A stretch of DNA of 64,000 nucleotides, from contig CAZZHR010000003.1 of the NCBI GenBank assembly GCA_964654205.1, positions 56,839 to 120,838 on the forward strand, given 5' to 3'. Position 1 is the first letter of the stretch; each line of letters starts with the position of its first letter. The DNA is from an uncultured Candidatus Saccharibacteria bacterium. GTDB taxonomy: Bacteria > Patescibacteriota > Minisyncoccia > Phycocordibacterales > UBA2100. The position numbers and the translations under genes are program-made. The notes beneath the pieces are model-generated. The model worked only from the letters and a program-made list of their open reading frames with translations. It did no database searches and was not told where the DNA came from. Positions 3,868 through 63,776 of this stretch are shown here, one piece after another.

Positions 3868-3946
3868 CGGCAACTTCATAAGCGCTTCAGTAGGAACGGC
3901 GCAGTATTGAGGCGGACAGAACTGTCCGGTCGAAATTTTTACAACT

Positions 3947-4105
3947 ATGTATACGATGCTCTACACGGTCGCGGCTATCCTACTCATCATCTGGATTGCG
4001 GGGCTCGCGACATCACAAGAGCTTGGCGGTTTCCTGCACTTGTTCCTCGTACTCTCGATAGCCATCGTGCTTCTTGCGCTCGTGCTTGGCGAAAAGAAAT
4101 CCTGA
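3947..4105 (+). CDS. Small membrane protein, lmo0937-family-like (52 aa), below the ORF-track threshold
   Basis: Translation MYTMLYTVAAILLIIWIAGLATSQELGGFLHLFLVLSIAIVLLALVLGEKKS has two hydrophobic helices. It resembles the widespread ~50-aa lmo0937 family (MLYTIAVIL..WLLG...GG.IHLLLVLAI...). Confidence 0.5.
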   Translation: MYTMLYTVAAILLIIWIAGLATSQELGGFLHLFLVLSIAIVLLALVLGEKKS

Positions 4106-4173
4106 CGATGCGTAAGAGTCGAGCACTGCGCGCGTCAGGGGATTGCTGCAGACTTGATGCAGAAAGAGTTTGT

Positions 4174-4908
4174 ATGAAAATATCTTACACGGCGTGGTAT
4201 ATCAGAAGCATATTCGCATCAATGGCGGTTGTGCTCTGCTTCGCGTGGGGTACGAATGCGGCGCACGCAGATGAAACATCGTCAGTATCTATCGCCAGCA
4301 CGGGGCAGGTTATCGTCAAAAACGCTGTCGTGACGGGAGTCGCGGGATCGGTCATCCACGCGGAAGCTCTCTGGGGCGCCGCAAGGATTGCATTCAGTGT
4401 TCAGACGACAGGTTCGACCCGATTCGTGCCTGACCTCGGCAGCAGGGAAGCGTTGCGGGCAATCGAGAAAGGTCACACGATATCGTTTTCTGGCTCGATG
4501 AGTGGGTCTCTCGCAAAACCTACCGTCAACGCGACGGTCGTGAAGGACACTGAACTGCTCCGTGAATCGGTATCGGTCGTTGGTACGGTGGAAAGCATCG
4601 ACGCGAAAAGCGGCACGTTTGTCCTCAGGACGCCCGAGGGCGCGACGACGATACAGGTGCCTGCGGGGGCTCTCATGTCGCGCAACGGCAACTATACGCG
4701 CGTTGCGGACATTGAGCCGGGAGACTCGGGTAAAGCCACGGGTACGCTGGACACGACTGCCGGTACGCTGCGAGCCAGCCGCGTTACGCTCGTGACCGGC
4801 ACAGAAGAGTCGCTGCCAGAAATCCCAAACACGGGCACGAGCGAGGGGGTGCTCTCGTCCATTATCGGGTGGCTCAAGGGAAGCAGGGGCATACTCTCGG
4901 TGCGCTAG
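4174..4908 (+). CDS. Secreted protein with signal peptide and C-terminal sortase-type sorting signal (IPNTG + hydrophobic stretch + basic tail)
   Basis: Internal ATG (MKISYTAWYIRSIFASMAVVLCFAWGTNAAHA) gives a signal peptide. C-terminus ...LPEIPNTGTSEGVLSSIIGWLKGSRGILSVR resembles an LPXTG-type cell-wall sorting signal. Confidence 0.5.
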   Translation: MKISYTAWYIRSIFASMAVVLCFAWGTNAAHADETSSVSIASTGQVIVKNAVVTGVAGSVIHAEALWGAARIAFSVQTTGSTRFVPDLGSREALRAIEKGHTISFSGSMSGSLAKPTVNATVVKDTELLRESVSVVGTVESIDAKSGTFVLRTPEGATTIQVPAGALMSRNGNYTRVADIEPGDSGKATGTLDTTAGTLRASRVTLVTGTEESLPEIPNTGTSEGVLSSIIGWLKGSRGILSVR

Positions 4909-7489: not shown

Positions 7490-7537
7490 GTGTATATGCT
7501 GCCCGGTCGCGAACGCGACCGGGCAGCATCCCTCCCC

Positions 7538-10339
7538 ATGAAAAGAATCCTCACTTCCATTGTCTTCGCGATCGTAGTGTGGCCTTCGCTCGCGGCCGGG
7601 CACGCGTCGCCACTGTCGTCCTTTCCAGAGTCTTCTTCCCGTCTTGCGGTCGTACCTGCGTACGTCTCGATTCAATTTAGCGAGCGTTTGGATGATGGTG
7701 CGAGCTCGATTGTTGTCAGGGGGCCGGACGGCTCGACAGTTTCGCCCGGTAGAGCGTATGTAGACCAATCAGACCGCAGACGTCTGACGGTGGATGTGAA
7801 CGCCTCGGGCGAGGGCGCATACATCGTCTCATGGAGTGTTGTTTCGTCTGACGATGGACACTTCACGCGCGGATCGTTTCCATTTGTTGTCGGAGATGCC
7901 GCGGCGCTGCCGGACATGCAAAGCGGGAATTTTGAAATAGTGCACGTTTCGACAGGGCTAGAGGCCGTCGCAATGACTGTGGAGCTTTTTGGCAACGGGC
8001 TTATCTGGGCGGCGCTGCTCATATTTTCTCTCGCAGTCAGGCCGCTCATACGAAGCGGGCGCTTCTCGGATGCCGCGCAGTCTCTCATGCGCGGATATGC
8101 GCATCTCGTGTTCATAGGCGCAAGCATGGCTTTGGTCGGTGGTGCAGCCCAGATAGCTGCGAAGTCGCAAGATCTTGCGAGCATACAGAATCTCGCGCTC
8201 CTCGAGGCACTGCAGGTATACATCGGCACAACGGCAGGGGAAGCAACGCTTTACCGTATGCTCGCGGTCGCGTTTGTCACTCTCGTATTTGCCGTATTCA
8301 GACGTGCAATCATGACTGCGCCGCGCTTCACGTGGCAAGAAGGTTTGGTCATCGCGGGCATGTCAGTATTCGCGTACTTTCGCGCGGTCGTCAGCCACGC
8401 AACGGCAAATCCCTTCATACCGGAGCTGTCAGTCGCGATCAACTTCGTGCATCTGATAGAAAAAGACTTCTGGGCGGGCGCGGCGTCGATACTCGTACTC
8501 CTGCTCGTGCTCAAAAGATTCAAGAGTGTCTTTGCGCCGCTCATGCACCAAATCTCCATCATGCTGTCGGTCAACCTCATGCTCGTCGCTCTTACAGGCG
8601 CGTACATCGTGTGGCTGCATCTCAGGACCTTCGACAACCTGTTTGCGACGCAGTGGGGTCTCGTCTTTATGCAACTCCTTATAGTCGCTGTCGCGCTCGT
8701 TGGCGTCCGCACATACCACGTGGTCACGCGAGTTTACCGACCTGTTCTTTTCTCAAAGCTCCTGCCCGCCACGCTCTCTCTTGAAGCAGCGCTCGCCCTC
8801 GCTGTCGTCTTCTATTCGAGCGTGGCTATCATTACGTCACCCCCGCTTCCAGATGCGCGCGGACCCGTGTACAGCCAGTCGGATGAGGGAATAACCGTCG
8901 ATCTTCGTGCCTCGGTTCTCGAAGACCGTGTCGCCCTGCTCTCGCTTACCGGCGGTACACCGCTCGAGCCGTCTGTCACGGTGAGCGGAGAGTCGGTCGG
9001 AACGGTTGTGGTGGTTCCCGAGGTGGCGTTCGCCGGAGGTTACCGTCTGCCGCTGTCACTGATGCAGGCGGACGAGGAGCTGGAGATCACCGTACGCGTA
9101 CCGCAAGAGGGTGCGTACGACGCGATTGTGAGCTTCTCTATTCCCTCGAACGGCTTTGAGCTGAAAGCGCACGCCGCGCAGAGGAGCTTCGATAGCTTCG
9201 CACTTTCAATGGCGCTCGTAGCGATTGGCGCTTTCGCATACGCGTATGTCGTATTCCGACTCTCCCGACGCGCGGTTGTTCTCGTACCCGTTGACAGATT
9301 CGCCTACCCCGTCGCGGTCGCAATCGTCGGGTTCGTGCTCGGTCTCGTCGTTATCACGAGAATAGCGATTGCGTATGCAGGGTTGCCGATTTCCAATCCG
9401 TATAAGGCACAGTGCGAGGCCGATGGCAATATGTGGCACCTCATGCTGCCGATGAAAGCTGGTATACCGCTCTCAGAAACGCCGCGAGAGGGCTGTATGT
9501 GGGGCATGGGCAACTACCAGTACATGTTTGCCGATGAGCGCGAGTATGACTACGTCAACTCATACCCTCCAGCGTTCGCGACTCTCGATTTTGAGAGTGG
9601 CACGCTCATCGCCGGCGTGCCGCAGGACTTCACTGTGTCGGTAAGGTACCCCGACGGCACCCCGGCGAATCTCTTCGTCGATATGGAGAAGCTTGTGCAT
9701 GTGGTCATCGTGAGCCGTGACCAGAGGCACTTCGCGCACATTCATCCCGATGACATGCGAGACCTCACTGAGAGCGAAAAAGAGTCGGCAACGTTCTCAC
9801 TCTCCTACACATTTCCCAGGGCGGGCGAATACCTTATATCAGTCGATTATGCCAACGGAATCCGACTCGAGAGCGCGCAGCAGAGCGTGACAGTCGTTGG
9901 CGCACCAGCTATGGAATCTGACACCGCGCTCTACGCGTCTCCCGCTCGTGTGGGCGATTACGACGTGGCTATGAGTTACACGCAGCCGTTTGCGGGGGAG
10001 GTAAGTACACTCGTATACGAAATACATAAGGAGGGGCAGCCGGCAGTACTGGAGCCATACCTCTCGGCCGCAATGCACATAGCTGTGATAAAGAATGATT
10101 TGGAAGCATTCGCTCACACGCACGGTGAGGTGCACCCGCCGGGTGTCGCGATGCCGCCAGTCATTGTCCGCGACGGCAAAATCGTGCACTCGATGGCGAC
10201 CATGTACACACCGCCGAGCTTCGCATATCCGATAGACGCGCACGTGATATTCCCCGAGCCCGGTCTCTACACAGTCTGGGCGCAGTTCCAAAGCGATGGG
10301 GAAGTATACGCCGTGCCGTTTACCGTGCGTGTGGAATAG
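7538..10339 (+). CDS. CopC-CopD fusion protein (YcnJ-like copper importer) with extended C-terminal extracytoplasmic region carrying two His-rich repeats
   Basis: Signal peptide then a CopC-like domain (HASPLSS..P..S..L..VP..VSIQFSERLDDGASSIVVRGPDGS...). This is followed by ~8 TM helices (CopD-like) and then ~400 aa with repeated ...FAHIHPDDM / ...FAHTHGEVHPPG motifs. Internal ATG (MKRILTS) of ORF 7490 (GTG) chosen. Confidence 0.75.
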   Translation: MKRILTSIVFAIVVWPSLAAGHASPLSSFPESSSRLAVVPAYVSIQFSERLDDGASSIVVRGPDGSTVSPGRAYVDQSDRRRLTVDVNASGEGAYIVSWSVVSSDDGHFTRGSFPFVVGDAAALPDMQSGNFEIVHVSTGLEAVAMTVELFGNGLIWAALLIFSLAVRPLIRSGRFSDAAQSLMRGYAHLVFIGASMALVGGAAQIAAKSQDLASIQNLALLEALQVYIGTTAGEATLYRMLAVAFVTLVFAVFRRAIMTAPRFTWQEGLVIAGMSVFAYFRAVVSHATANPFIPELSVAINFVHLIEKDFWAGAASILVLLLVLKRFKSVFAPLMHQISIMLSVNLMLVALTGAYIVWLHLRTFDNLFATQWGLVFMQLLIVAVALVGVRTYHVVTRVYRPVLFSKLLPATLSLEAALALAVVFYSSVAIITSPPLPDARGPVYSQSDEGITVDLRASVLEDRVALLSLTGGTPLEPSVTVSGESVGTVVVVPEVAFAGGYRLPLSLMQADEELEITVRVPQEGAYDAIVSFSIPSNGFELKAHAAQRSFDSFALSMALVAIGAFAYAYVVFRLSRRAVVLVPVDRFAYPVAVAIVGFVLGLVVITRIAIAYAGLPISNPYKAQCEADGNMWHLMLPMKAGIPLSETPREGCMWGMGNYQYMFADEREYDYVNSYPPAFATLDFESGTLIAGVPQDFTVSVRYPDGTPANLFVDMEKLVHVVIVSRDQRHFAHIHPDDMRDLTESEKESATFSLSYTFPRAGEYLISVDYANGIRLESAQQSVTVVGAPAMESDTALYASPARVGDYDVAMSYTQPFAGEVSTLVYEIHKEGQPAVLEPYLSAAMHIAVIKNDLEAFAHTHGEVHPPGVAMPPVIVRDGKIVHSMATMYTPPSFAYPIDAHVIFPEPGLYTVWAQFQSDGEVYAVPFTVRVE

Positions 10340-16504: not shown

Positions 16505-17125
16505 ATGAGGGTAGAGCTAGCGGACGAAGAACATTATCACGTTTTCAATCGCGGCGTTGATAAGCGAACGATATTCGCGGATGCGCACGACATCGATAGA
16601 TTCCTCACCAGCTTACGCATGTTCAACTCGACCGAGCCTATCGGAAGCATCTACGAGCATCGATTCAATGAGAAACAGTCGGGCGAATCGATTGTAGATG
16701 TGATTGCGTACTGCTTGAATGTAACCCATTACCATCTGATTCTCCGGCAGACGACGGGGCGTGGAATTCAACGATTCATGCAGCGGCTCGCTACGGGCTA
16801 CACGATGTACTTTAACGAGAAGTACAAGAGGACGGGCGCGCTCTTCCAGGGTAGGTACAAGGCGGTGCACATCTCTTCTAACGAGCAACTGCTACACACG
16901 AGCGTCTACGTTAATCTAAACAACCAACTTGGAGGTTCAACCTCCAAGTTGGGCGCTTCGAGTTGGGGAGAGTACCGGGGCAGTGACAATGGGTTCTGCA
17001 AGAAGGATATAGTGCTGGAGCAGTTCGCAACGGTCCAACAATACGAGCTATTTGCGAAGATGTCAGCGGCCGAGATTGCAGAGCGTAAGCGAGCGGAAAA
17101 AGAAATGCAATGGCTTGGAGGTTGA
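16505..17125 (+). CDS. IS200/IS605-family-like Y1 HUH transposase, REP-associated tyrosine transposase (RAYT)-like
   Basis: HYHVFNRG N-terminal motif, HUH motif THYHLIL, and ...ALFQGRYKAV...SVYVNLNN in the position of the RAYT WQxRF.../YIYINP tyrosine helix. The gene is flanked and interrupted by identical palindromes. Confidence 0.7.
   Translation: MRVELADEEHYHVFNRGVDKRTIFADAHDIDRFLTSLRMFNSTEPIGSIYEHRFNEKQSGESIVDVIAYCLNVTHYHLILRQTTGRGIQRFMQRLATGYTMYFNEKYKRTGALFQGRYKAVHISSNEQLLHTSVYVNLNNQLGGSTSKLGASSWGEYRGSDNGFCKKDIVLEQFATVQQYELFAKMSAAEIAERKRAEKEMQWLGG
16926..16950. repeat. REP-like perfect palindrome copy 2 (AACTTGGAGGTT-C-AACCTCCAAGTT), in-frame inside the transposase ORF (encodes QLGGSTSKL)
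   Basis: Same arms as copies 1 and 3, but the loop is TCA instead of TGA so the reading frame stays open. Confidence 0.9.
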
Positions 17126-39270: not shown

Positions 39271-39654
39271 ATGAAATACAGTGCATTCGTCTCTTGGGGA
39301 ATTGTGATGTATGCCATCATGTTCTTGCTTTGGTCAGGCTTTGTTGTCTATGGCTTCGTCGAGGGCGTAGCGCCTCGTCTTGTCGGACTCACAGTGCTTA
39401 TAGTTTTGGCGACCGTAGCCGGACGCTCATTGCGCTTTCACCGATGGCAGGACATCCTTCCGTACTCTCTCTCGTGGGTCGCTGTAGTCGCGATACTCGA
39501 CATAATCCTCACAGTGCCCTTTACGGGCTGGGCGCTCTTTAGTGATTGGAATATATGGGTCGGCTATGCGCTGATTGCATTCGTGCCACTGCTTGCTCCG
39601 CTTTTGAATAGAGCATGGCCACGTGAGGCAACATCCGAGAGTCATGCACCTTAG
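39271..39654 (+). CDS. Small polytopic membrane protein
   Basis: Four hydrophobic helices; no family recognised. Confidence 0.4.
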   Translation: MKYSAFVSWGIVMYAIMFLLWSGFVVYGFVEGVAPRLVGLTVLIVLATVAGRSLRFHRWQDILPYSLSWVAVVAILDIILTVPFTGWALFSDWNIWVGYALIAFVPLLAPLLNRAWPREATSESHAP

Positions 39655-40795
39655 CGCGATAGACACTCACAGATTGTTCGTACGAGCCGCGCTCGCAAGC
39701 GCGCACCTGTTCGCCTGGGTTTTTATTTTCCAGTATTTCTACGTGCAAACCCGATCGATTCCTGCAGCACTTGCAAGCGTACTTCTTACATATGCATTGA
39801 CGCACACTGTTATTGTCCTTTGTACGCCATTTTCCGCAAAGCGACTTCGGCATGGTTTTAGGGGCTCACTTCTCGTTGCTACCGCGCTGCTCGCGACATC
39901 CTTTGCTGTGCTCGCGTTCGCGTTTTCCGGTGCGCTTGGAGATGTCGGCATAGGTATCGCACTCTTCGCCTTGCTTTCAGCGCTTTATCGCGCGTTCTAT
40001 TGGACTCCCTATGCGGTTTCTCGCAGCGTCGCGCCGGCACGTACGCGCGAGTGGGTTGAAGTACTCGTTGCGCTCATGCCACTCGCGGCTGGCTTGTACT
40101 TGGCAATTGACTCGTCCTCAATTGCCGGATTTATGTATGCAGCGGGCGCGCTCACGCTCCTCGCCTGCATACCGCTCTTTGGCGTGCGTGACGTGTACGA
40201 AGGCTACGCTTTCACGTATAGGACATCGTTCCACGAATTGTTCGACGAGCGCAACCGATCGCTTCTGCGCGGCTCAGTGTTATCTGGCATCGAGGCCGCT
40301 GCCTTGTTCATTCTCTGGCCTATTACTGTCTTCACGCTTATCGACTGGTCATACCCACTACTTGGTGTCGTGATGTCCCTCACTCTTATACTGACCTTCC
40401 TAGCAAGAAAGGTGCTGTCGAAACCTATGGAGTCGATGCCTGAGAGCGTACTACCGCTTGTCGCCATATCGGGTTGGGTAATGCGTCTCGGCGTCGGGGG
40501 ATTCGTTTCTGCGATCATAGTAGATACGTACTTTCACGCAATAGGGCGCTCGTCTTATCGAGGGCTTGATATCCACACACAGGAGCATGTGGCCGATAAC
40601 CACACATTCGTCGATGAATACACCGTGTTGAAGGAAATGGGAATGGCGCTCGGCCGCATCGCACTCTGCCTCGCGATGGTCTTCCTGCTGTGGTTCATGC
40701 CGCTTGCGTACGCGCTCATTTGCGCATTCCTACTCGCCGGCCTCGCAGCGGGGCTGTCGGTATACCAGGCACAACGCGCCCGCGCAGCGTATTAA
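39644..40795 (+). CDS. Polytopic membrane protein (10-12 TM), transporter-like (possibly MFS)
   Basis: Continuous series of TM helices across 380 aa. The start is uncertain: 39644 overlaps the upstream gene by 11 nt. Confidence 0.4.
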   Translation: MHLSAIDTHRLFVRAALASAHLFAWVFIFQYFYVQTRSIPAALASVLLTYALTHTVIVLCTPFSAKRLRHGFRGSLLVATALLATSFAVLAFAFSGALGDVGIGIALFALLSALYRAFYWTPYAVSRSVAPARTREWVEVLVALMPLAAGLYLAIDSSSIAGFMYAAGALTLLACIPLFGVRDVYEGYAFTYRTSFHELFDERNRSLLRGSVLSGIEAAALFILWPITVFTLIDWSYPLLGVVMSLTLILTFLARKVLSKPMESMPESVLPLVAISGWVMRLGVGGFVSAIIVDTYFHAIGRSSYRGLDIHTQEHVADNHTFVDEYTVLKEMGMALGRIALCLAMVFLLWFMPLAYALICAFLLAGLAAGLSVYQAQRARAAY

Positions 40796-48120: not shown

Positions 48121-49560
48121 ATGAGTGAGAAGACGGGTTGGGCAAGACAGTGGGATATGTATTCCGGCGGCATGGGCAGCCTTCTTTCGATCGACAACTG
48201 GGTCGACTGGATGGGCGGCTGGGGAATGTCGAGAGCTCTCTTTCTGTGGATTCTGTTTGCAGCGGAGTATCTGTGGCTCATGCACCTGATACCGCACCTC
48301 CCCCTGTATACATTCAATTGGCTTGTAGGTACGTCGCCCATATGGCTACCTGTAATTTTAGTGATGGCTGCGTGGCGCGTATGGATATGGTACGTGCATT
48401 CGCTCTTTCTATCCGGTCGCAACCCGATACTGCTCGAGATGAAAGTGCCGCGCGAGATTGATAAATCGCCGCGCGCGATGGAGATTGCGTTCTCTCTGTT
48501 CGCAATATCGTCGGGCGAAACGACGTTCATTCATCGCGGGTGGAAAGGCCAGGTCAGACCATTCTTTTCATTCGAAATGGCGAGCTTTGGCGGCGAGATT
48601 CATTTCTATGTGTGGTGCTGGAAGAACTACAAGAGTGAGGTGGAGAGCGCGATATACGGCCAGTACCCCGAGGTCGAACTTCACGAGGTTGAGGATTACG
48701 CGACAAAATTCGAGTTCGACCCAAGCAAGCACGCGGCCTTTGCAGCAGAGTGGAGACTCGAGTGCTACCACGGTATCAGTGCCGGAGATTTCCGTATCAA
48801 CGCATACCAGCCGAGGTCGTACGTGGATTTTGAGCTCGATAAAGACCCGAAATCAGAGCATCGTGTGGACCCGCTTGCGACGGTTCTCGAATTTATCGGC
48901 AACATCGAACCGCATGAACAAATATGGATACAACACATCATCAGAAAATGCGGCAAGAAGAATATTCTTTTCACGTACGACGAGGACCACGACTGGCTAC
49001 ACGCCATCGAACATGAGGTTGAACGAATCCGAGCCAAGGCCGCTACGGTGAATCCTGGAGACGTCGAGTCAGTTGAGAAGGAGCTCCATATGGAATTCGA
49101 GCGTGCACCGCAGGCTCGCCCCTCATGGCGCCAACAAGAGCAGCTACGTTCGCTCGAGCGCCATATGAGCAAGTACCCATTTGAATACGGTGGCCGCGCT
49201 ATATACATATCGGGCAATGGCCACTTGCACGGACCGACCTACACCGGAATGCGATGGCTATGGAAGCCGATGGGCAATCCCAACTATCTCTCGCAACTGC
49301 GTCCGAGACGATGGAGCTGTGACTTCGACTACCCGTGGCAAGACGTAGCGGATATCCGGTTCAATAACCAGATTCGTCGCGCCCTCGACGCGTTCCGTCG
49401 CAGGAGCTTTTTTCATACGCCATGGATTATACCTACCAACATTCTCACCAACGAGACACTTGCGACGATTTGGCACCCACCGAGCAGTACGGTGCAGGTT
49501 CCCGGACTACGCCGCATTCCTTCTACGAAAGCGAGCGCGCCATCAAATCTTCCTAAGTAG
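48121..49560 (+). CDS. Large Trp-rich hypothetical membrane protein (479 aa)
   Basis: 2-3 N-terminal TM helices then ~380-aa soluble domain rich in W/H/R; no family recognised. Confidence 0.4.
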   Translation: MSEKTGWARQWDMYSGGMGSLLSIDNWVDWMGGWGMSRALFLWILFAAEYLWLMHLIPHLPLYTFNWLVGTSPIWLPVILVMAAWRVWIWYVHSLFLSGRNPILLEMKVPREIDKSPRAMEIAFSLFAISSGETTFIHRGWKGQVRPFFSFEMASFGGEIHFYVWCWKNYKSEVESAIYGQYPEVELHEVEDYATKFEFDPSKHAAFAAEWRLECYHGISAGDFRINAYQPRSYVDFELDKDPKSEHRVDPLATVLEFIGNIEPHEQIWIQHIIRKCGKKNILFTYDEDHDWLHAIEHEVERIRAKAATVNPGDVESVEKELHMEFERAPQARPSWRQQEQLRSLERHMSKYPFEYGGRAIYISGNGHLHGPTYTGMRWLWKPMGNPNYLSQLRPRRWSCDFDYPWQDVADIRFNNQIRRALDAFRRRSFFHTPWIIPTNILTNETLATIWHPPSSTVQVPGLRRIPSTKASAPSNLPK

Positions 49561-55824: not shown

Positions 55825-56010
55825 CGGCGCATAGTATAGCCGACCACCATGCACGGCAAATGAGGACTCTTGACAATACTGACTGATAAGTGCTTAATCA
55901 GTATGGCTTGTTCCTTGGAAATCTAATGGGTCTATGGGTACCTCGTCCCGCCTAGATACTCCACTGAACTGCCGTATCATCAAAACGCCCACACAGAGGA
56001 GTAGGCATCG

Positions 56011-57036
56011 ATGAACACTGGCAACAGCATCGTCATTCCGAACGTCAACGTTCTGGAGCAGCATGGCGATCGGATGTACACTTTCACCTTGAGCGCCGAG
56101 CTGCTCGTCGCACTCGGCAAGGTCGAACGCTTCGGCGTCGACCCCAGCGGCGTGAACCGGAAATTGGATGACGACCATGCGACCGCGATTGCGGAGGCGA
56201 TGCTCGATCGCTCGATCGTCTGGATCGAGGCAATCCTCGGCGATCTCGGTGGCGGCTGGCTCTACGACGAGTCTGCGCGTACGCTCACCGGTCCCGCGGA
56301 CGCCTTCCTGTCGATCGACAACGGGCAGCATCGACGCCGTGCGCTGGAACTCATCAACGCGCTCGAGAGGGAGCATCTCTCGTTCAGTATCTGCGCGACG
56401 ATGAACATGCCGTTCGAGCGTCGGCTCAAGATCTTCCGTATGCAGCGGCACCAGAAGCCGCTCGATGCGCGCCTCGACCTCGCGCAGCGGAATGTCCTCG
56501 GCGAGTGGAAGTCTCCGCTCGATAAGGAGGCCTACGACTTGTTGTTGCTCCTGAGCTCCGACGTGACGTCGCCGCTCAAGGGCCTCGTCCTTCTGGAAGA
56601 GCAGGAGAAGCGGCCATACGAAGGCCGGCATCGCCCGGTGGGCATCAACGGCAAGGGTCTGCACAACACGATCCGCAGTGTGATCGGGCCGAGCAGCCCG
56701 CTGCACGCGCTCTCGCCGGAGAAGCGGAGGACCACCATCCTCTCGCTCATCCAGCTCGCAGCGCAGATCTGGCCGAAGCAGTGGAAGTCGGACAAGCACA
56801 TCCTGACGACGGCGCGGGGCATCAACGCCCTGCTCGGTCTCATGGTGAGCTCTCCGAATTTCCGCGGGACGATCGGTGACGACTTCTCGCCCGAATCGTT
56901 GCGTCGCGGCCTGGAGTTTGCGGAGTCATTTTCGTGGAGCTCCGCCGACTGCCGCAACGCGAGCGTGCGCGAGATCATCTCGCGTATCAACCAGTCGATT
57001 GGCCGCAACAAGCGCACAAAGAAGGTCGCCGCGTAA
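56011..57036 (+). CDS. DGQHR-domain protein (DndB-like), solitary
   Basis: …FLSIDNGQHRRRAL… matches the DGQHR signature of the DndB/ParB-like family. The gene has its own SD (GAGGAG) and terminator, and its GC and GC3 are markedly higher than in the neighbouring genes. Confidence 0.6.
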   Translation: MNTGNSIVIPNVNVLEQHGDRMYTFTLSAELLVALGKVERFGVDPSGVNRKLDDDHATAIAEAMLDRSIVWIEAILGDLGGGWLYDESARTLTGPADAFLSIDNGQHRRRALELINALEREHLSFSICATMNMPFERRLKIFRMQRHQKPLDARLDLAQRNVLGEWKSPLDKEAYDLLLLLSSDVTSPLKGLVLLEEQEKRPYEGRHRPVGINGKGLHNTIRSVIGPSSPLHALSPEKRRTTILSLIQLAAQIWPKQWKSDKHILTTARGINALLGLMVSSPNFRGTIGDDFSPESLRRGLEFAESFSWSSADCRNASVREIISRINQSIGRNKRTKKVAA

Positions 57037-57061
57037 GCAAAACGCCCACAGCCGAATCCTA

Positions 57062-57094
57062 AGAGGCCGCAGCAATGCGGCCTCTTTCTTTTTG
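57062..57094 (+). terminator. Rho-independent terminator AGAGGCCGC-AGCAAT-GCGGCCTCT + TTCTTTTTG
   Basis: 9-bp perfect stem plus T-tract 25 nt after the DGQHR gene stop. Confidence 0.75.
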
Positions 57095-57120
57095 TATGGA
57101 AGCGCGCTACTTTGTTGTGA

Positions 57121-59040
57121 ATGACAGTCAACGAAGTTCGGCGGAAATATTTAGAGTTTTTTAAGACTCAGGGGCATACGGTCATTCCATCCGCGTCGCT
57201 CGTGCCGCAGAATGACCCGACCACCCTTTTTACAGGAAGCGGCATGCAGCCCCTCGTACCGTACCTCCTCGGAGAGCCGCACCCCAAGGGCAGTAGGCTC
57301 GTCAACAGCCAGAAAAGCTTTCGAGCGGAAGACATTGAAGAGGTGGGCGACAATCGTCACACCACATTTTTTGAGATGCTCGGCAATTGGTCGCTCGGCG
57401 ATTACTTCAAACAAGAGCAGCTCCCATGGTTCTTCGAATTTCTCACTCAGGATATTGGCATCGACCCGTCGAGACTGTACGTGACCGCATTTATCGGCGA
57501 TGAGGCCAACAACGTGCCGCGAGATACAGAATCGGCGGAGATATGGCAGCGACTCTTTTCCGAAAAGGGAATCGACGCAGAGATTCGCGAAGTGGGGAGC
57601 GAGGCCGATGGCTATCGACTCGGCATGCGTGGCGGGCGCATTTTCTACTACAACGCCAAGAAAAATTGGTGGAGCCGTGCCGGTGTGCCAGAGAATATGC
57701 CCCCGGGTGAACCGGGCGGCCCAGACAGCGAGGTCTTCTATGATTTCGGGACGCCACACGATGCCAAATACGGTCCCGAGTGTCACCCCAACTGCGATTG
57801 CGGTCGATTTATGGAAATCGGCAACTCAGTCTTCATGCAGTACATCAAGCAGTCGGACGGTAGTTTTCAGTTGCTCCCCAAGCAGAACGTAGACTTCGGA
57901 GGCGGCCTCGAAAGAATCACAGCTGCCAAGAGCGGTGACTCTGACGTGTTTAAGACGGATGTCTTCTGGGACGTGATTCTTCTGCTTGAGCAGTTCTCTG
58001 GCAAGCAGTACAGCGATAGCCGCTATTTGCGCTCGTTCCGCGTGGTTGCCGACCACATGCGCGCCGCGGTGCTCATGCTGGGCGATGGTGTGCGACCATC
58101 CAACACAGAACGCGGTTACATATTGCGCCGGCTGCTCCGACGCGCCTCACAGCACGTGCAGAAGCTCGGCATTGCTGCGGAGAAACAGGAAGACAGCATG
58201 CTCGTGCGCGCAGCAGTCATACTTATTGAGAAGTACAAAGGTGCTTATAGCGAGCTCGACGGGGAGCAGGCCTACAAAGACATCACCGGTGAAATCTGGA
58301 AGGAGGAAGTGCAGTTTGGCCGCACACTCGTCGCTGGCATGAAGGAGTTTGAGAAACTCTCAGGCTCGAACATTGGCGCTGAAGATGCGTATATGCTCTT
58401 CACGACGTACGGCTTTCCTTTCGAAATGACGCAGGAACTAGCGCAGGAGCGGGGAATTCCGGTAGACGTTTCCGGGTTTAAGGAGCTCATGAAAAAGCAC
58501 CAGGAAACATCGCGCGCGGGTTCAGAACAAAAATTCAAAGGAGGCCTCGCTGACCACTCTGAGAAAACGACGCGATTGCACACGGCGCACCACTTGCTCC
58601 TCAAGGCTCTGCAGATAGTCCTCGGTCCACACGTAAAGCAGCGCGGGTCCAACATCACATCGGAGCGACTTCGCATCGACTTCTCACACGGAGAGAAGAT
58701 GACGAAAGAGCAGCTTGCCGACGTCGAGCGTATCGTCAATGAGCGCATACGAGATGCCCTGCCGGTCGTTCGTTCGACACTGCCGAAAGAGGAGGCGGAA
58801 ATGCTCGGCGCGGAGCACGAGTTTGGCGCAAAATATCCTGACACAGTTTCCGTATATTCGATTGGTCCTGTCGGCGCGACGCTTGAGAGCCCCGCTTTTA
58901 GCGAGGCGTATTCAATCGAATTTTGCGGGGGGCCACACGTCGCAAACACACGCGAAATCGGGGAAGGCGGTACGTTTAAGATCCAAAAGGAGGAGGCCGT
59001 TGCATCGGGTGTGAGGCGTATCAAAGCGGTGCTCGTGTAG
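57121..59040 (+). CDS. alaS: Alanine--tRNA ligase, short form (catalytic + editing domains, no C-Ala domain)
   Basis: Class II catalytic core (…FTGSGMQ…, …FFEMLGNWSLGDYFK…), editing-domain HxxxH…CGGPHV motifs. Ends at 639 aa. Confidence 0.85.
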   Translation: MTVNEVRRKYLEFFKTQGHTVIPSASLVPQNDPTTLFTGSGMQPLVPYLLGEPHPKGSRLVNSQKSFRAEDIEEVGDNRHTTFFEMLGNWSLGDYFKQEQLPWFFEFLTQDIGIDPSRLYVTAFIGDEANNVPRDTESAEIWQRLFSEKGIDAEIREVGSEADGYRLGMRGGRIFYYNAKKNWWSRAGVPENMPPGEPGGPDSEVFYDFGTPHDAKYGPECHPNCDCGRFMEIGNSVFMQYIKQSDGSFQLLPKQNVDFGGGLERITAAKSGDSDVFKTDVFWDVILLLEQFSGKQYSDSRYLRSFRVVADHMRAAVLMLGDGVRPSNTERGYILRRLLRRASQHVQKLGIAAEKQEDSMLVRAAVILIEKYKGAYSELDGEQAYKDITGEIWKEEVQFGRTLVAGMKEFEKLSGSNIGAEDAYMLFTTYGFPFEMTQELAQERGIPVDVSGFKELMKKHQETSRAGSEQKFKGGLADHSEKTTRLHTAHHLLLKALQIVLGPHVKQRGSNITSERLRIDFSHGEKMTKEQLADVERIVNERIRDALPVVRSTLPKEEAEMLGAEHEFGAKYPDTVSVYSIGPVGATLESPAFSEAYSIEFCGGPHVANTREIGEGGTFKIQKEEAVASGVRRIKAVLV

Positions 59041-59194
59041 ACTTTTTGTGCGTTGGGCAATACGCGCCGTATTATGCGTGATACGTTCAGTGACATATAC
59101 GCGAAACTTTTTTGTGGAAAAATTTCGAACGACTGCCGCGATTTGTACACTGCAGCCAGATTGTGCCGTATCCCACAGGGTATACTGAATACAA

Positions 59195-60337
59195 ATGATA
59201 CACATGAATTTGCCGTTCACGCGACAGAAGGTCGTCGCGGTCGTCGACGTAGCTCCTGGCGGCGCCTCTGTTGCCATACTTTCATGTCCGGACGGCGCCC
59301 CGTCGACCGTGCGCGCGTCCGCACGCTCCGTACTCTCTCTAGAGGCGCGTACAGAGGCGCAATCGAAGGCGCTCATAGGAGGACAGGTGAAGGAGGCTGC
59401 CGAGCAAGCAGTAAAGCTCTACACAGCCGCCGGTCAAAACGGCGCAGTGACTGAAGCGTACGTTGTGGTGCATGCACCATGGGCACGCTCCGTAATAGTC
59501 CGAACGCATGAGCTGTACGAAACGGACACTAAAATGAGCGCGGAGCACATCGCATCTATCGGTAAGAGCTCACTCGCGAACATCCGCGACGTGGATAGTG
59601 CGCGACTGCTCGAGGGGAGCGTAATTCAAGTGTCACTCAATGGGTACCCCACCGCATCTCCGCACGGCATGAGCGCCCGCTCTCTGGAGGTGACGTCTCT
59701 CGCAAGCGACTGTGATGAGTCTGTGCAATCGGCGGTGGAAGGATCGGTACACACTGTGTTTCCCGTAGCGCGCGTCTCTTGGCGCACGGGAGTCCGAGCG
59801 CTTTTTGCTGTTGCGCGCGAGGCATTGCCGCATGAGTCGTTTCTCGCCGTCGACATGGGCGTCGACAATACGCATCTCATATCAGTGCATGAGGGTGGCA
59901 TCGACCAGCTCGTCATTCCTGAGGGGAGCAGGACAGTGCTCTCACGCATCGCCGGTACGCGAGCGCCCGATGAGGTGCTCGGCATTTTGCGGATGATATC
60001 GCGAGACGCGTGTTCATCAGAAGCCTGCGCGTCGATAACGCAGGCGCTTGCAAGCGCGGAATCCGATCTTGTAAGAATCTTCGGAGAGGCACTCGCGAAA
60101 GTCTCAGCGAAAGGGAAGGTGCCCAACGACGTCGTGCTTATCGTGCACCCGAGCCTCGAGTCCTGGCTATCGGCATTCCTGTCGCGTATCGACTTTGCGC
60201 AATTTACTATAACGTCGATGCCGCTCACTATTCACGATGGGCGCGCGATGGATATTGCCCGGTGGGTGGGCGGCGCCGACACCTCCGACGCCCTCACTAT
60301 CGGGAGTGCCCTTGTCAACATTGAATCACGAAGGTAG
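59195..60337 (+). CDS. Hypothetical protein, possibly actin-fold ATPase of the PilM/FtsA type
   Basis: …KVVAVVDVAPGGASVAIL… and …FLAVDMGVDNTHLISVHEGGIDQLVIPEGSRTV… resemble the phosphate-1 and phosphate-2 regions of PilM/FtsA-like proteins. Weak, by-eye only. Confidence 0.3.
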   Translation: MIHMNLPFTRQKVVAVVDVAPGGASVAILSCPDGAPSTVRASARSVLSLEARTEAQSKALIGGQVKEAAEQAVKLYTAAGQNGAVTEAYVVVHAPWARSVIVRTHELYETDTKMSAEHIASIGKSSLANIRDVDSARLLEGSVIQVSLNGYPTASPHGMSARSLEVTSLASDCDESVQSAVEGSVHTVFPVARVSWRTGVRALFAVAREALPHESFLAVDMGVDNTHLISVHEGGIDQLVIPEGSRTVLSRIAGTRAPDEVLGILRMISRDACSSEACASITQALASAESDLVRIFGEALAKVSAKGKVPNDVVLIVHPSLESWLSAFLSRIDFAQFTITSMPLTIHDGRAMDIARWVGGADTSDALTIGSALVNIESRR

Positions 60338-60373
60338 CGAGTGGTACGACGTACGATGATATAATTTGGTCTC

Positions 60374-61723
60374 ATGGCTAAGGATTACTTTCAGGATATC
60401 ATCCCGCCTTCGCCGAGAAAGCATTATGCGGCGCACAAGAGAGCGACGGATGGCGACGCCGTGAATGTTCCGATACACACTGATCCCGAACCGATGACGC
60501 GCTCCATTCGCAACATTTCCGCACCGAGCAGAAGTCGCTCCCGTCCCATACCTGAACGACCCTCGCCAGCTAGGCGAGAGGGACGACGCGGTCTCACATT
60601 CATCGTGTGGGTTATCGCAGTCGTTGCCGTGCTCACCCTTGCCGCCCTGCTCCTCGTTGCACTTCGGCCTACCCGAGTGAGTGTCGAGCCTCGTACGCAC
60701 GTCCTTACCTTTGTTGGCGAGACATTTACCGCAGTCCCTACCCACCTCGCGACGGCTTCAGATCTCCCCTACGAGATGGAGACTTTCGAGCTGGAGGATT
60801 CTGAACTCGTCCCAAGTAGCGGCGTTGTCTACGCGGAAGAAAAATCAAGCGGAAATATCATCGTATACAACGATTTCCAATCCGAACCACTCAGACTTGT
60901 AAAGAATACTCGCTTCGAGACCCCTGCTGGACTCATATTCCGCTCCCCGGCAGACATCACTATTCCTGGAAGGCGTGCTGGCGCCCCGGGCCAGGTCGAG
61001 ATTACTGTGGTCGCCGACCAGCCCGGGGAGCAATACAACGTTGCCGCCGGGAAGTTTACGATACCCGGCCTCAGATCTTCTCCCGACATGTATGCGCAGG
61101 TGTACGCCGAGTCGAAGCAGCCTTTCTCGGGCGGATTCGTCGGTGAGCGTCCAGGGGTCGCCGCAGGTGCGCTCGAGAGTGCTATCGCAAGCGTACGTGC
61201 CCGTCTTGAAGCAAAGGCCGCAGAGTCGCTTGCACAGACGTCTGACGACTCGATTCGCCTCTCAAGTCTTGCGCGCATCGAATACGTATCTCTACCAAAC
61301 ACTTCCGATACCAGCGGCGGGGTGCGTATCAGCCAGAGGGCTCGCGTGAGCGTCCCCGTGTTCTCATCGCAGGTATTCGCCTCGGCAATTAGCGGCGCAG
61401 CGGTAGACGCAAGCGACATTGCCGCCATTCGCATACTCCCGCGGAATGACTTTCAGATTACGCCTGCCGGCACGTCTACGACTCCTGGCGATACACAGAT
61501 TACATTTGCTCTGCAGGGTGCCGCCCTACTCGTGTGGGACGTTGACGAACAAGCCCTTCAAGAGGCCCTTGCAGGCAAGGAGAAAGTCGCCTTTGAAGCC
61601 ATTGTTGCCGGGTTCCCCTCTATACAAGGGGCGACCGCACGAATAGAGCCCTTCTGGCGGAGCACGTTTCCCGATGTCCCGGCAGACATAGAAATTCGGG
61701 TGACTGAGCCCAGTGCAAATTAG
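60374..61723 (+). CDS. Hypothetical bitopic membrane protein (Pro/Arg-rich cytoplasmic N-terminus, one TM, ~340-aa beta-rich extracytoplasmic domain)
   Basis: TM helix LTFIVWVIAVVAVLTLAALLLVAL; no family recognised; directly upstream of infA. Confidence 0.4.
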   Translation: MAKDYFQDIIPPSPRKHYAAHKRATDGDAVNVPIHTDPEPMTRSIRNISAPSRSRSRPIPERPSPARREGRRGLTFIVWVIAVVAVLTLAALLLVALRPTRVSVEPRTHVLTFVGETFTAVPTHLATASDLPYEMETFELEDSELVPSSGVVYAEEKSSGNIIVYNDFQSEPLRLVKNTRFETPAGLIFRSPADITIPGRRAGAPGQVEITVVADQPGEQYNVAAGKFTIPGLRSSPDMYAQVYAESKQPFSGGFVGERPGVAAGALESAIASVRARLEAKAAESLAQTSDDSIRLSSLARIEYVSLPNTSDTSGGVRISQRARVSVPVFSSQVFASAISGAAVDASDIAAIRILPRNDFQITPAGTSTTPGDTQITFALQGAALLVWDVDEQALQEALAGKEKVAFEAIVAGFPSIQGATARIEPFWRSTFPDVPADIEIRVTEPSAN

Positions 61724-61769
61724 TGTCTTGACGCAAGGTCGACTTGCTGCTATTCTTCGCCCCGCAGAT

Positions 61770-61976
61770 ATGGCCGAAACGAAAGAAGTCGAGGGAGTCG
61801 TCGATGAGGCACTCCCGAATACACTCTTTCGTGTAAAGCTCGAGTCCGGTGAGATAGTACTCGCGTACCTCGCAGGAAAGATGCGTCTGCATAGAATTAA
61901 GGTGCTCGTCGGCGATCGCGTGCAGTTGCAACTTGATCCATACGGCGGCAGGGCTAGAATAACGCGGCGCTTTTAG
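61770..61976 (+). CDS. infA: Translation initiation factor IF-1
   Basis: …[33 protein letters not shown]…I..GDRV… matches the IF-1 S1-like fold. Confidence 0.9.
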
Positions 61977-61987
61977 CCGCTTCTGTC

Positions 61988-62101
61988 ATGAAAGTCAAAG
62001 CTTCCGTTAAGAAAATTTGCATGCATTGTCGGCACGTCAAAAGACGCGGTCGGTTGTGGGTCATTTGTTCAAACCCCCGTCACAAGCAGCGCCAAGGCTA
62101 A
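61988..62101 (+). CDS. rpmJ: 50S ribosomal protein L36 (37 aa; below the ORF-track threshold)
   Basis: [37 protein letters not shown] matches bL36 with its zinc-ribbon C…C…C…H. Confidence 0.85.
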
Positions 62102-62125
62102 TCACAACAATTTCACATTTCAACC

Positions 62126-62506
62126 ATGCGTATTGCGGGAATCACCATACCTGATGAGAAACGACTCGAGATAGGCCTCACGGCTATTTATGGCGTCGGT
62201 CGACCTCGTGCTCAGGCAACCCTTTTAGAGCTGGGTATCGATCACGGCAAGCGCCCGAAAGACCTCTCAACGCAAGAGGAGTCGGCACTTCGCGAGAAGC
62301 TCGAGAAATTTACCATCGAGGGTGAATTGAAAAGGCAAATTTCTGGGAACATTCGTCGCCTCAAAGATATCAAGGCGCACAGGGGAAATCGACACCTCAA
62401 GAAACTTCCGGTTCGCGGTCAGCGCACCAAGACAAATTCCCGTACCGTCCGTGGCAACGTCCGCAAGACAATGACGAGCGGTAGACGTAAGCTCGAGAAG
62501 ACATAA
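62126..62506 (+). CDS. rpsM: 30S ribosomal protein S13
   Basis: MRIAGITIPDEKRLEIGLTAIYGVGRPRAQ… matches uS13. Confidence 0.9.
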   Translation: MRIAGITIPDEKRLEIGLTAIYGVGRPRAQATLLELGIDHGKRPKDLSTQEESALREKLEKFTIEGELKRQISGNIRRLKDIKAHRGNRHLKKLPVRGQRTKTNSRTVRGNVRKTMTSGRRKLEKT

Positions 62507-62703
62507 GGGCTTGTCCCACGAAATGAGCGCATTACGTGCGTTCATTTCGTGGCTGACAAACCTTACCCAGCACCTTCTGCGGACAGTGTTGACCGCGAGG
62601 TACTGGAAAGGGTCTGTTTATTCACGATACAGCACGTCTTGGCGTGAGAAGGTGCTGGGTGTAAGAGCTTCTACGCTCGCTACACTCGCTAAGAATCTCT
62701 AAC

Positions 62704-63138
62704 ATGGGAAAGAAACGAATCATCAGAAAATCAGGTGGCACGGTGGACGCGGGGCTGAAGTCGCGCTCACTTGCGCGCACCGCGAAGAAGAATATTGTCG
62801 CGGGCACGCTCCACATCCATGCTACTTACAACAACACGAAGGTGCTTCTCACCGACAAGAATGGTAACGCAGTCGCCTGGTCTTCGTCTGGAAGTCTCGG
62901 ATTTTCTGGCGCCAAAAAAGGCACGCCCTTTGCTGCCGCCAAGGTTGGCGAGCTTGTCGGAGATAAGGCAGCAATCATCGGCGTGAAGGAAGTTGATGTC
63001 GTGATACGCGGTGTCGGCGCGGGTCGCGAGAGCGCGCTTCGAGGATTTGCGGGCAAGGGCATCGATGTGACGCGCATTGCCGATGACACTCCTGTGCCCC
63101 ACAACGGACCACGTCCGCCGAAGCCAAGGCGCGTATAA
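62704..63138 (+). CDS. rpsK: 30S ribosomal protein S11
   Basis: …GTLHIHATYNNTKVLLTDKNGNAVAWSSSGSLGFSGAKKGTPFAA… matches uS11. Confidence 0.9.
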   Translation: MGKKRIIRKSGGTVDAGLKSRSLARTAKKNIVAGTLHIHATYNNTKVLLTDKNGNAVAWSSSGSLGFSGAKKGTPFAAAKVGELVGDKAAIIGVKEVDVVIRGVGAGRESALRGFAGKGIDVTRIADDTPVPHNGPRPPKPRRV

Positions 63139-63176
63139 TGCGCGGAACACATTACGTAATGCACTAAAGTCTTTTC

Positions 63177-63776
63177 ATGCTACCCGTAAAATCTAAGTAC
63201 AAAATCGCGAAGCGCCTCGGCAACGGCGTCTTTGAGCAGACGCAGACACAGAAGTTCGCGCTCTCAGAGGCACGTTCTCGCAAAGAGAAGCGCGGACGCG
63301 GCGCGTCGGACTACGGCAAACAGCTGCTCGAGAAACAGCGCGTGCGCTACACATACGGGCTCGCGGAGAAACAGCTTTCAAACTACGCCCATAAAGCGAT
63401 CACCGAGCCAGACCCGTCGCTCTCGCTCTATCGGACGCTAGAGATGCGCGCAGACAGCGCGGTCTACCGGGCTGGTTTTGCCTCCACGCGACGCGCAGCG
63501 CGCCAGATGGTGAGTCATGGACACATCACTATCAATGGCCGCCGCACTACAGTGCCTTCGCATGAGGTAAAGAAGGGCGATGTGATTTCTGTACGCGAGG
63601 GCAGTCGCACAAGTCCGCTTTTTGCGTCGCTTGCCGAGAAGGAGGCCCGTTCGATACCACAGTGGCTTTCTGTAGATCTCAACTTGCTCAAGGCGGAGGT
63701 CACCGGTGAGCCGATGTACTCTTCGGCGGAAGTCGGATTGGACCTCGCGACGGTGTTTGAATTCTACAGCAGATAA
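63177..63776 (+). CDS. rpsD: 30S ribosomal protein S4
   Basis: N-terminal …KYKIAKRLG… and S4 RNA-binding domain (…RQMVSHGHITINGRRTTVPSHEVKKGDVISV…). Confidence 0.9.
   Translation: MLPVKSKYKIAKRLGNGVFEQTQTQKFALSEARSRKEKRGRGASDYGKQLLEKQRVRYTYGLAEKQLSNYAHKAITEPDPSLSLYRTLEMRADSAVYRAGFASTRRAARQMVSHGHITINGRRTTVPSHEVKKGDVISVREGSRTSPLFASLAEKEARSIPQWLSVDLNLLKAEVTGEPMYSSAEVGLDLATVFEFYSR

Follow-up and report, generated by a model that had tools for sequence, protein, structure and literature searches.

Two adjacent genes on the + strand, here called A and B, lie between alaS and the ribosomal-protein genes that begin with infA near the end of the window (the whole 64,000-nt stretch analysed). Gene A (59195-60337) encodes a 380-aa cytoplasmic protein without sequence-family assignment that, judged by its predicted structure, is an actin-fold protein of the FtsA/PilM type. 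Gene B (60374-61723) encodes a 449-aa bitopic membrane protein whose ectodomain, from its ORF, homologues and AlphaFold2 (AF2) model, resembles phage baseplate wedge proteins. The two genes are invariably linked in relatives and we tentatively propose, at somewhat short of an even chance, that their products would form a two-component membrane-spanning scaffold working on the same principle as FtsA-FtsN and PilM-PilN.

Both ORFs were found exactly as the initial annotation had given them (380 aa and 449 aa, both +), and they are more than chance ORFs since homologues are numerous and confident folds were obtained for both. Upstream lies alaS in its short 639-aa form (57121-59040, +), recognized by Pfam, NCBIfam and synteny. 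The expected downstream genes were likewise matched by ORFs, family models and synteny: infA (61770-61976), rpmJ (61988-62101), rpsM (62126-62506), rpsK (62704-63138) and rpsD (63177-63776), all on the + strand and together making a block from 61770 to 63776. The rpoA gene, which had been listed with them, falls past the window end and is seen only in relatives, where it is next in line. The start of infA is most likely the ATG at 61770 (giving 68 aa) and not the GTG at 61713, and infA therefore does not overlap B. None of the long ORFs in the 59 kb upstream is secY, adk or map.

Is the insertion of such a pair into a ribosomal-protein cluster unusual, as first supposed? It is not a local oddity, because the order alaS-A-B-infA-rpmJ-rpsM-rpsK is kept in every related locus examined (~170). 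In all 91 + 3 + 80 related loci, wherever the contig reaches, B directly neighbours A with order and strand unchanged, and this extends down to ~25% identity between A members. The initial annotation would have counted against its own idea a pair that was an ordinary, lineage-wide companion of infA and whose function was known; of this, only the lineage-wide occurrence applies.

A and B appear to be served by separate promoters. A -10-like box (TATACT, 59181-59186, +) ends 8 nt upstream of the A start codon (ATG), and an extended -10-like box (TGaTATAAT, 60357-60365, +) ends 8 nt upstream of that of B. Of 55 distinct related loci, 54 have a TAnnnT box whose end lies 6-9 nt 5' of the A start; at the B start a -10-like box 6-11 nt upstream occurs in 37 of 55 loci, and in 32 of these it carries the TG extension. 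The leaderless-type starts described earlier as TATAnT-N9-ATG are thus real and conserved, with a spacing of 8 nt and not 9. Such starts are a genome-wide habit, being found at 13 genes in the window.

The separate -10 boxes, together with a spacer of 13-151 nt, agree with a reading in which the two products make no contact but are independent lineage-specific proteins with inherited synteny, the conserved N-terminal peptide of B (described below) binding some other partner or serving in targeting or insertion. The whole mnmA-to-dnaJ neighbourhood is syntenic in relatives, so that neighbours here need not be functionally linked, and in a highly syntenic small genome the adjacency of A and B could be a frozen accident, which counts against the scaffold model. 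On the other hand, A and B stay adjacent where intervals nearby gain or lose genes (for instance that between the M16 peptidase gene and alaS), and an anchor-less FtsA/PilM-type protein paired with a bitopic protein that carries a conserved N-terminal peptide fits two solved precedents. We regard the no-contact reading as distinctly unlikely.

The initial suggestion of an actin fold for A was borne out by the model, which has an actin/ASKHA fold that lacks subdomain IB and carries an IC (SHS2) subdomain within domain I, the arrangement of FtsA. The SHS2 module (aa 97-173; 59483-59713, +), a hallmark of both FtsA and PilM, was assigned by secondary-structure order, structural alignment and conservation. 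Its elements run strand-helix-strand-strand (E97-113, H116-128, E138-148, E160-173), and it carries a conserved E140 and an LNGYP block. About 330 residues of A align structurally with FtsA, compared with only ~230-250 for actin-fold proteins that have no IC subdomain. The PilM structural score is nearly equal to the FtsA score, and like PilM the A protein has an FtsA-like actin fold without a membrane anchor. It ends at aa 380 with the final helix of the fold (366-379, well predicted), and its homologues stop at the same place; neither the model nor the homologue alignment contains a C-terminal amphipathic membrane-targeting helix or tail. A would therefore need a membrane partner.

The two motifs quoted for A in the initial annotation are present as well. 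The phosphate-1-like loop AVVDVAPGGAS (aa 15-25; 59237-59269, +) lies between strands 1 and 2 of the model, and the phosphate-2-like loop is LAVDMGVDNTHLISVHEGG (aa 217-235; 59843-59899, +). Homologues keep the key residues D18, G22, D220 and T226 with little or no variation. An hhalign comparison pairs VDMGVDNTH of A with VDIGGGTMD of E. coli FtsA (probability 26%). In the alignment the phosphate-2 loop has lost its Gly-rich character, and by our reading of the same alignment the adenosine GG motif appears to be replaced by HPS or HPD. The nucleotide site is thus partly degenerate, which makes FtsA-like polymerisation uncertain. The most conserved block of the family is elsewhere: RIDFAQFTITSMP (aa 331-343; 60185-60223, +), with invariant R331, D333, F334, Q336, F337, T340 and P343, has the top 10-aa conservation (0.84) and is retained in the most distant members, making it a candidate partner-binding surface.

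Sequence databases miss the FtsA/PilM-type nature of A. Pfam, NCBIfam and PHROGs gave no match to the window protein, and the FtsA models (PF14450, PF02491 and NCBIfam ftsA) gave none at E ≤1. Across the family the most frequent weak Pfam match is FtsA PF14450 (4 of 33 members, best E 0.01), followed by Actin and then by HSP70 and FGGY_N with one member each. PilM_2 (Pfam) and pilM (NCBIfam) matched neither the window protein nor any of the 33 members. In a profile search against PDB sequences the only match was Thermotoga maritima FtsA, at a non-significant E of 0.23. Since kinases share the actin/ASKHA fold, A might be thought to be no scaffold protein but a metabolic ASKHA enzyme, either an activase or a kinase acting on a sugar or an acid; weak FGGY_N or DDR matches in single members and the conserved Asp residues of both phosphate loops go in this direction. 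Such an identity is barely credible, and we rejected it.

Could A be simply the divergent FtsA of this lineage, binding FtsZ, with B as an FtsN-like late-division protein whose tail activates it? The actin fold with its IC subdomain is shared with the FtsA of the FtsA-FtsN divisome pair (PDB 7Q6D, 7Q6I), but several features set A and B apart from that pair. A has no C-terminal membrane-targeting helix, the sequence comparisons with FtsA are as weak as given above, and its PilM scores nearly match its FtsA scores. Gene A is outside any dcw or ftsZ context: in ~170 loci it is always between alaS and B, none of them showing ftsZ, ftsQ or a mur gene as its neighbour, and the murB and ddl genes of the window have no fts genes alongside. 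B, for its part, has a baseplate-wedge-like ectodomain in place of the SPOR domain of FtsN. Searches with E. coli queries found no ftsA, ftsZ or ftsQ in the window or in the loci of relatives; as these loci cover only the syntenic neighbourhood, this says little about whole genomes. Taken together, these points make a divergent FtsA proper unlikely, though still worth weighing.

The ectodomain of B (aa 97-449; 60662-61720, +) is collinear with wedge proteins of the Baseplate J/gp47 type, and by both sequence and fold homology it is a relative of them. The AF2 model (pLDDT 83.7) has the multi-domain wedge-protein fold, with a beta-barrel at about aa 100-260, a long helix at 264-287, and alpha/beta domains from there to the end; the structural counterparts are wedge proteins of the Baseplate J/gp47/gp6 type from Mu (gp47), cyanophage A-1(L) (gp31), phi812 and diffocin. 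At the sequence level the window protein scores 13.9 bits against PF04865, below the gathering score of 21.1, but 32 of 52 homologues match this family at E ≤0.01 (best 6.7e-6), the baseplate wedge subunit profile phrog_6 matches at E 1.6e-7, and many of the at least 196 homologues carry a precomputed PF04865 match. A profile search of B against PDB sequences gave nothing significant. The barrel alone (~145-165 residues) is also common to GlxA of Streptomyces lividans (PDB 4UNM), a galactose oxidase homologue, the rest of which is unmatched in B.

The outer domain of B is not PilN-like, PilO-like or POTRA-like, types that the initial annotation had listed for checking; the baseplate-wedge fold and sequence matches were found instead. 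This bears on the possibility that the pair belongs to a type IV pilus or a competence machine, as a divergent alignment subcomplex of the PilM-PilN type. A does have the anchor-less FtsA-like fold of PilM in the type IVa pilus alignment subcomplex (PDB 2YCH, 5EOU, 3JC8). However, the outer domain of B does not have the PilN/PilO fold, PilM_2 and PilN Pfam signals are lacking in the respective families, and none of pilB, pilC, pilT, pilO, pilD or pilin genes is near the pair in any locus. The cytoplasmic tail of B (~70-135 aa) is much longer than that of PilN (~30 aa; PMC7613929). We give a pilus or competence role only a slim chance.

The homology of B to wedge proteins by sequence and fold might be taken to mean that B is the remnant of a prophage or of a contractile injection system. 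Yet no contractile-tail genes (gp25/W, gpI, tube or sheath) and no other phage genes were found beside B, its neighbours being alaS, A, infA and ribosomal genes in all loci; B has been kept by vertical descent at a single core-genome position across ~170 loci; its GC content is ordinary for the region; and, unlike tail wedge proteins, it has an N-terminal membrane anchor and a conserved cytoplasmic tail. The chance of a phage remnant is next to negligible, and this reading too was rejected. The label 'baseplate J/gp47 family protein' is misleading for B if taken as a prophage marker.

The membrane topology given for B in the initial annotation, a Pro/Arg-rich cytoplasmic head, one TM helix and a large outer domain, agrees with both the AF2 model and the charge distribution. 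The transmembrane helix (aa 73-96; 60590-60661, +) coincides with an AF2 helix and with the one hydrophobic window (mean KD 2.7-3.1). K and R are more numerous N-terminal than C-terminal of this segment, a bias that fits an N-in (type-II bitopic) orientation under the positive-inside rule, the single criterion for it. The Pro/Arg-rich stretch at aa 1-66 is disordered (pLDDT <50). It begins with a nearly invariant peptide, MAKDYFQDIIPP (aa 1-12; 60374-60409, +), the proposed docking motif for A. Its consensus is MAKDYFQDIxPP, with MKDYFVDL and MAKEFTQDITPP in distant members; the first 10 residues are the most conserved decamer of B (0.89) and are directly followed by its least conserved stretch. 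Synonymous positions in the codons of the peptide vary freely, which argues that selection acts on the peptide and rules out a constraint on the RNA, as in a leaderless mRNA. Inside the variable tail there is a second conserved motif, RSIRNIS (aa 43-49; 60500-60520, +), in which I45 and R46 are invariant and I48 nearly so, with RGIRNI in distant members. The N-terminal peptide and the conserved blocks of A are both too invariant to give a covariation signal.

How might the two proteins work together? In both known pairs the IA-IC cleft is the binding site: that of FtsA takes up residues 1-8 of the bitopic FtsN, and that of PilM the N-terminus of PilN (PMC7613929). By analogy, the N-terminal peptide of B may dock into A, with the IA-IC cleft as the likeliest site, and so recruit the anchor-less A to the membrane, with the variable disordered tail serving as a long tether for the docking peptide. 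A may further oligomerise, which would couple the cytoplasm to the wedge-like ectodomain of B. We infer a housekeeping role in the envelope or in division, and not an accessory function of the pilus kind, because the window holds one copy of the pair, its place among core genes is the same in every related locus seen, and each of the two genes has its own promoter. As a separate observation, the start of B (MAKDYF) looks like that of E. coli FtsN (MAQRDYV), a likeness of a few residues only that may be due to chance. An 868-aa A-B 'fusion' (P0245) is probably a stop-codon read-through by the gene caller and was not taken as true fusion evidence.

Patescibacteria of the Kaiserbacteria type are ultra-small, have not been cultivated and are probably episymbiotic, and to our knowledge almost nothing is known of their division, envelope construction or attachment to host cells. 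Nothing relevant turned up in literature searches on baseplate J in Patescibacteria/CPR and on FtsA or PilM in Kaiserbacteria. A lineage-wide, apparently single-copy pair such as A-B is thus a testable candidate for one of these processes. In phage tails the baseplate wedge module builds ordered oligomeric rings. A more speculative extension of the scaffold model, and an improbable one, is that A polymerises beneath the membrane and, by way of the B tails, arranges the exapted wedge module into an ordered structure at the cell surface; this would be an undescribed trans-membrane machine of ultra-small Patescibacteria, either for division or wall growth in place of an FtsA-based system or for host attachment. 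The pair would clearly exemplify how a phage tail module can become part of a core cellular protein. If the A-B scaffold model is true, it would also be the third example, after FtsA-FtsN and PilM-PilN, in which a bitopic partner uses its N-terminal peptide to hold an actin-like scaffold.

The A family itself is large. A word-index search gave 35 homologues and a profile search 2,504 representative clusters, with at least 1,500 weaker relatives at E 1e-10 to 1e-30; a third search, with a profile of distant members, returned only 2 proteins. As these 2,504 clusters are without annotation, gene A merits definition as a family.

Genes A and B lie on the forward strand at 59195-60337 (380 aa) and 60374-61723 (449 aa), exactly where the initial annotation had placed them, and their GC content is ordinary. 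Upstream of A is alaS (57121-59040; Pfam tRNA-synt_2c, NCBIfam equivalog NF002436, 677 bits); its product is a short-form alanyl-tRNA synthetase of 639 aa that terminates directly past the editing/SAD domain. Downstream of B come infA, rpmJ (61988-62101, 37 aa), rpsM, rpsK and rpsD. A mechanical ORF list begins infA at GTG 61713 (61713-61976), overlapping B, but this start was discarded because it is contradicted by the relatives, all of which have a 68-aa IF-1, and by gene calls on identical contigs. For the same reasons the start is most likely ATG 61770 (68 aa, ORF ending at 61976), so that infA does not overlap B. A promoter-like site (TTGACG-17-TGcTATTCT, 61728-61756) precedes this ATG; as infA thus appears to have its own promoter, co-transcription of A and B with the ribosomal genes is not implied. 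About 45 long ORFs from the preceding 59 kb were compared with Pfam; the scans identified uvrABC, murB, ddl, dnaB, recR, mltG and mnmA, along with pyrimidine and purine genes and several aminoacyl-tRNA synthetases, and no secY, adk or map.

Is this arrangement a peculiarity of one genome, as its apparent oddity had suggested? A word-indexed search returned 35 homologs of A, none of them annotated and the named ones all from Candidatus Kaiserbacteria or Paceibacterota, and a profile search of 1.84 billion representative proteins returned 2,504 clusters at E <= 1e-3 and 315 at <= 1e-30. B has at least 196 homologs, some of which NCBI calls 'baseplate J/gp47 family protein'; in a pattern scan limited to a single genome for each GTDB species, 129 species-level genomes contained relatives of B. 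In HMM and phmmer scans the order alaS-A-B-infA-rpmJ-rpsM-rpsK was present wherever the contig was long enough, in 91 loci and in 80 further loci that were collected from metagenomes with distant A members as seeds. It also surrounds the most distant A members among the matches listed, which in their alignment (A3) are no more than 22-29% identical to the database homolog P0301; the fetched set as a whole is partly redundant. Further downstream the relatives have rpsD-rpoA-rplQ-rplM-rpsI, after which grpE-dnaK-dnaJ come in most of the longer loci. Since the order is identical across these loci, the splitting of the ribosomal super-operon before infA, with alaS-A-B at that point, is fixed throughout a large clade of Patescibacteria and is not an event in one genome. 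Many of the GTDB representatives bearing the locus (e.g. L012, L015, L018 and L021) are TPA assemblies titled 'uncultured Candidatus Saccharibacteria bacterium'. These titles look like generic mislabels, because gene order and protein identities group the genomes with Kaiserbacteria-type Paceibacteria.

Protein A has no family match in Pfam, NCBIfam or PHROG. Its AlphaFold2 model, built with a 33-sequence alignment, is confident (mean pLDDT 88.8, pTM 0.87). Among its fold matches there is a clear gap to ParM (14.8), and beyond the gap EutJ, Hsp70, MreB, actin-related proteins and sugar kinases score 11-14 over about 200-250 aligned residues. The extra aligned length of A corresponds to a strand-helix-strand-strand insert (aa 97-173) that, in the model, is the IC/SHS2 subdomain, the feature that sets FtsA and PilM apart from other actin-fold proteins. 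Sequence-level signals agree faintly with an FtsA-type fold: among weak Pfam matches of family members FtsA is the commonest (4/33, best E 0.01), with Actin next and HSP70 and FGGY_N after it (one member each); the sole match of the family profile to PDB sequences is T. maritima FtsA (E 0.23, at equivalent positions); and hhalign aligns VDMGVDNTH of A with VDIGGGTMD of E. coli FtsA (probability 26%). D18 and G22 (phosphate 1), D220 and T226 (phosphate 2) and G244 are among the conserved residues. The phosphate-2 loop is degenerate instead of Gly-rich as usual and, as read from the alignment, the adenosine GG motif is apparently replaced by HPS/HPD, so that nucleotide binding by A is uncertain. 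Conservation is highest in RIDFAQFT (aa 331-340), LNGYP (147-151), HAPW (92-96) and C273-x4-C278. This nearly invariant Cys-x4-Cys pair (RDACSSEAC; residues 273-278, window 60011-60028) lies in a helical region past subdomain IIA and is retained in distant members, though missing from a few. The chain stops at the last helix of the fold, with no FtsA-type C-terminal amphipathic tail.

In the AlphaFold2 model of B (pLDDT 83.7) aa 1-66 are disordered, aa 73-96 form one helix and the C-terminal part is predicted well. The bitopic layout with a Pro/Arg-rich cytoplasmic head that had been proposed for B is supported. Across 54 homologs there is a single strongly hydrophobic window with more Lys and Arg on its N-terminal side than after it, as expected if the N-terminus is inside and the C-terminus outside. 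Contrary to what had been considered, the ectodomain resembles neither PilN nor PilO nor POTRA. Foldseek aligns it with solved Baseplate J/gp47-type phage wedge proteins over 340-380 columns, approximately the whole ectodomain (probability 1.0, E 3e-7 to 5e-5); differing domain orientations account for the low TM-scores. The PHROG family phrog_6 ('baseplate wedge subunit') also matches B (E 1.6e-7), and among 52 homologs 41 match the GlxA barrel and 32 Baseplate_J, for which B of the window itself scores under the Pfam cutoff. B is a true, if distant, relative of the wedge proteins.

The top conserved decamer of B is its very start, MAKDYFQDII (residues 1-10; 0.89). Directly after it conservation drops to its lowest (0.22-0.40), and beyond this stretch lies a second small motif, RSIRNI (aa 43-48). 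Distant members retain MKDYFVDL or MAKEFTQDITPP, plus RGIRNI, while the tail varies in length, the transmembrane segment of homologs beginning at aa 69-137. Selection on the 5' end of a leaderless mRNA could be thought to conserve this start, but synonymous positions in codons 2-12 vary freely, which rules this out and indicates selection on the peptide. One database entry (P0245, 868 aa) joins A and B in one ORF, with ...SSHAGEWYTLDS-MTKEYFDDITPP where they meet; this probably reflects a gene caller that ignored a stop codon and not a real fusion.

The TATAnT-N9-ATG starts attributed to both genes exist, but with a spacing of 8 nt: a TATACT box (59181-59186) before A and a TGaTATAAT box (60357-60365) before B, both on the forward strand. 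Among 55 related loci, 54 have a -10-like box 6-9 nt upstream of the ATG of A and 37 have one 6-11 nt upstream of that of B. Within the window 13 long ORFs have an ATG 6-8 nt past a TATAAT/TATACT-type box (13335, 17550, 34601, 35181, 41962(-), 45018(-), 48121, 51726, 52979, 53505, 55824(-), 59195 and 60374) against 0.17 expected from shuffles. Leaderless-type starts are thus a habit of the genome and not a mark of the pair, and leaderless or near-leaderless mRNAs seem, from these boxes, to be common in it.

How might A and B work together? Wedge modules of the B type form ordered rings in phages. In two solved systems, FtsA-FtsN and PilM-PilN, an actin-fold protein of the FtsA type has a bitopic partner in the membrane, whose very N-terminal end is bound in the IA-IC cleft (PMC7613929). 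A has the same fold class and, like PilM, no membrane anchor; B, encoded immediately downstream, is built as such a partner would be, with a short, nearly invariant N-terminal peptide, a flexible cytoplasmic tether and a single transmembrane helix. Given these precedents, we propose that the N-terminal peptide of B docks on A and would keep it at the membrane, B thereby linking a cytoplasmic scaffold, which may be oligomeric, to its extracytoplasmic module. Contact between the two proteins, its location and any polymerization are inferred by analogy. The start of B (MAKDYF) also resembles that of E. coli FtsN (MAQRDYV), which may be taken as a lead only. The lineage-wide, apparently single-copy occurrence of the pair in a core-gene neighborhood with no pilus genes nearby argues for a housekeeping role in the envelope or division rather than in a pilus.

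A is like FtsA and PilM in fold and predicted partner logic but fails the sequence-family tests of both, and it lacks the membrane-targeting helix and dcw context of FtsA and the pilus context of PilM. B differs from Baseplate J wedge proteins in being membrane-anchored and chromosomal, with no tail genes alongside. A literature search found no mention of the pair, or of baseplate-J-like proteins in the bacteria that bear it. By analogy, then, the two would constitute an FtsA/PilM-type scaffold and an unprecedented partner, with a predicted physical interaction. The finding is solid and the pair so far unannotated; it bears on the cell biology of uncultivated ultra-small bacteria.

Some other features of the window deserve comment. 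Between an M16 peptidase gene and alaS is a GC-rich patch (0.626) with a DndB-like ORF (56011-57036; Pfam DndB E 2.4e-6, under the cutoff). The interval 55855-57120 varies among relatives and looks like a local insertion hot spot: locus L001 has a sigma factor and a 602-aa unknown protein there, L005 has other genes, and in L003 and L010 it is empty. An IS200-like Y1 transposase-family ORF occurs at 16505-17125, and a similar Y1_Tnp gene lies between grpE and dnaK in L001. A 949-aa protein (7490-10339) begins with a CopC domain and also matches a filamin-type repeat, though below threshold. Large ORFs without a Pfam match are 3907-4908 (333 aa), 39623-40795 (390 aa) and 48121-49560 (479 aa), the last of which has a likely ortholog at the same position in L003 that itself gives only a weak DUF8128 match.
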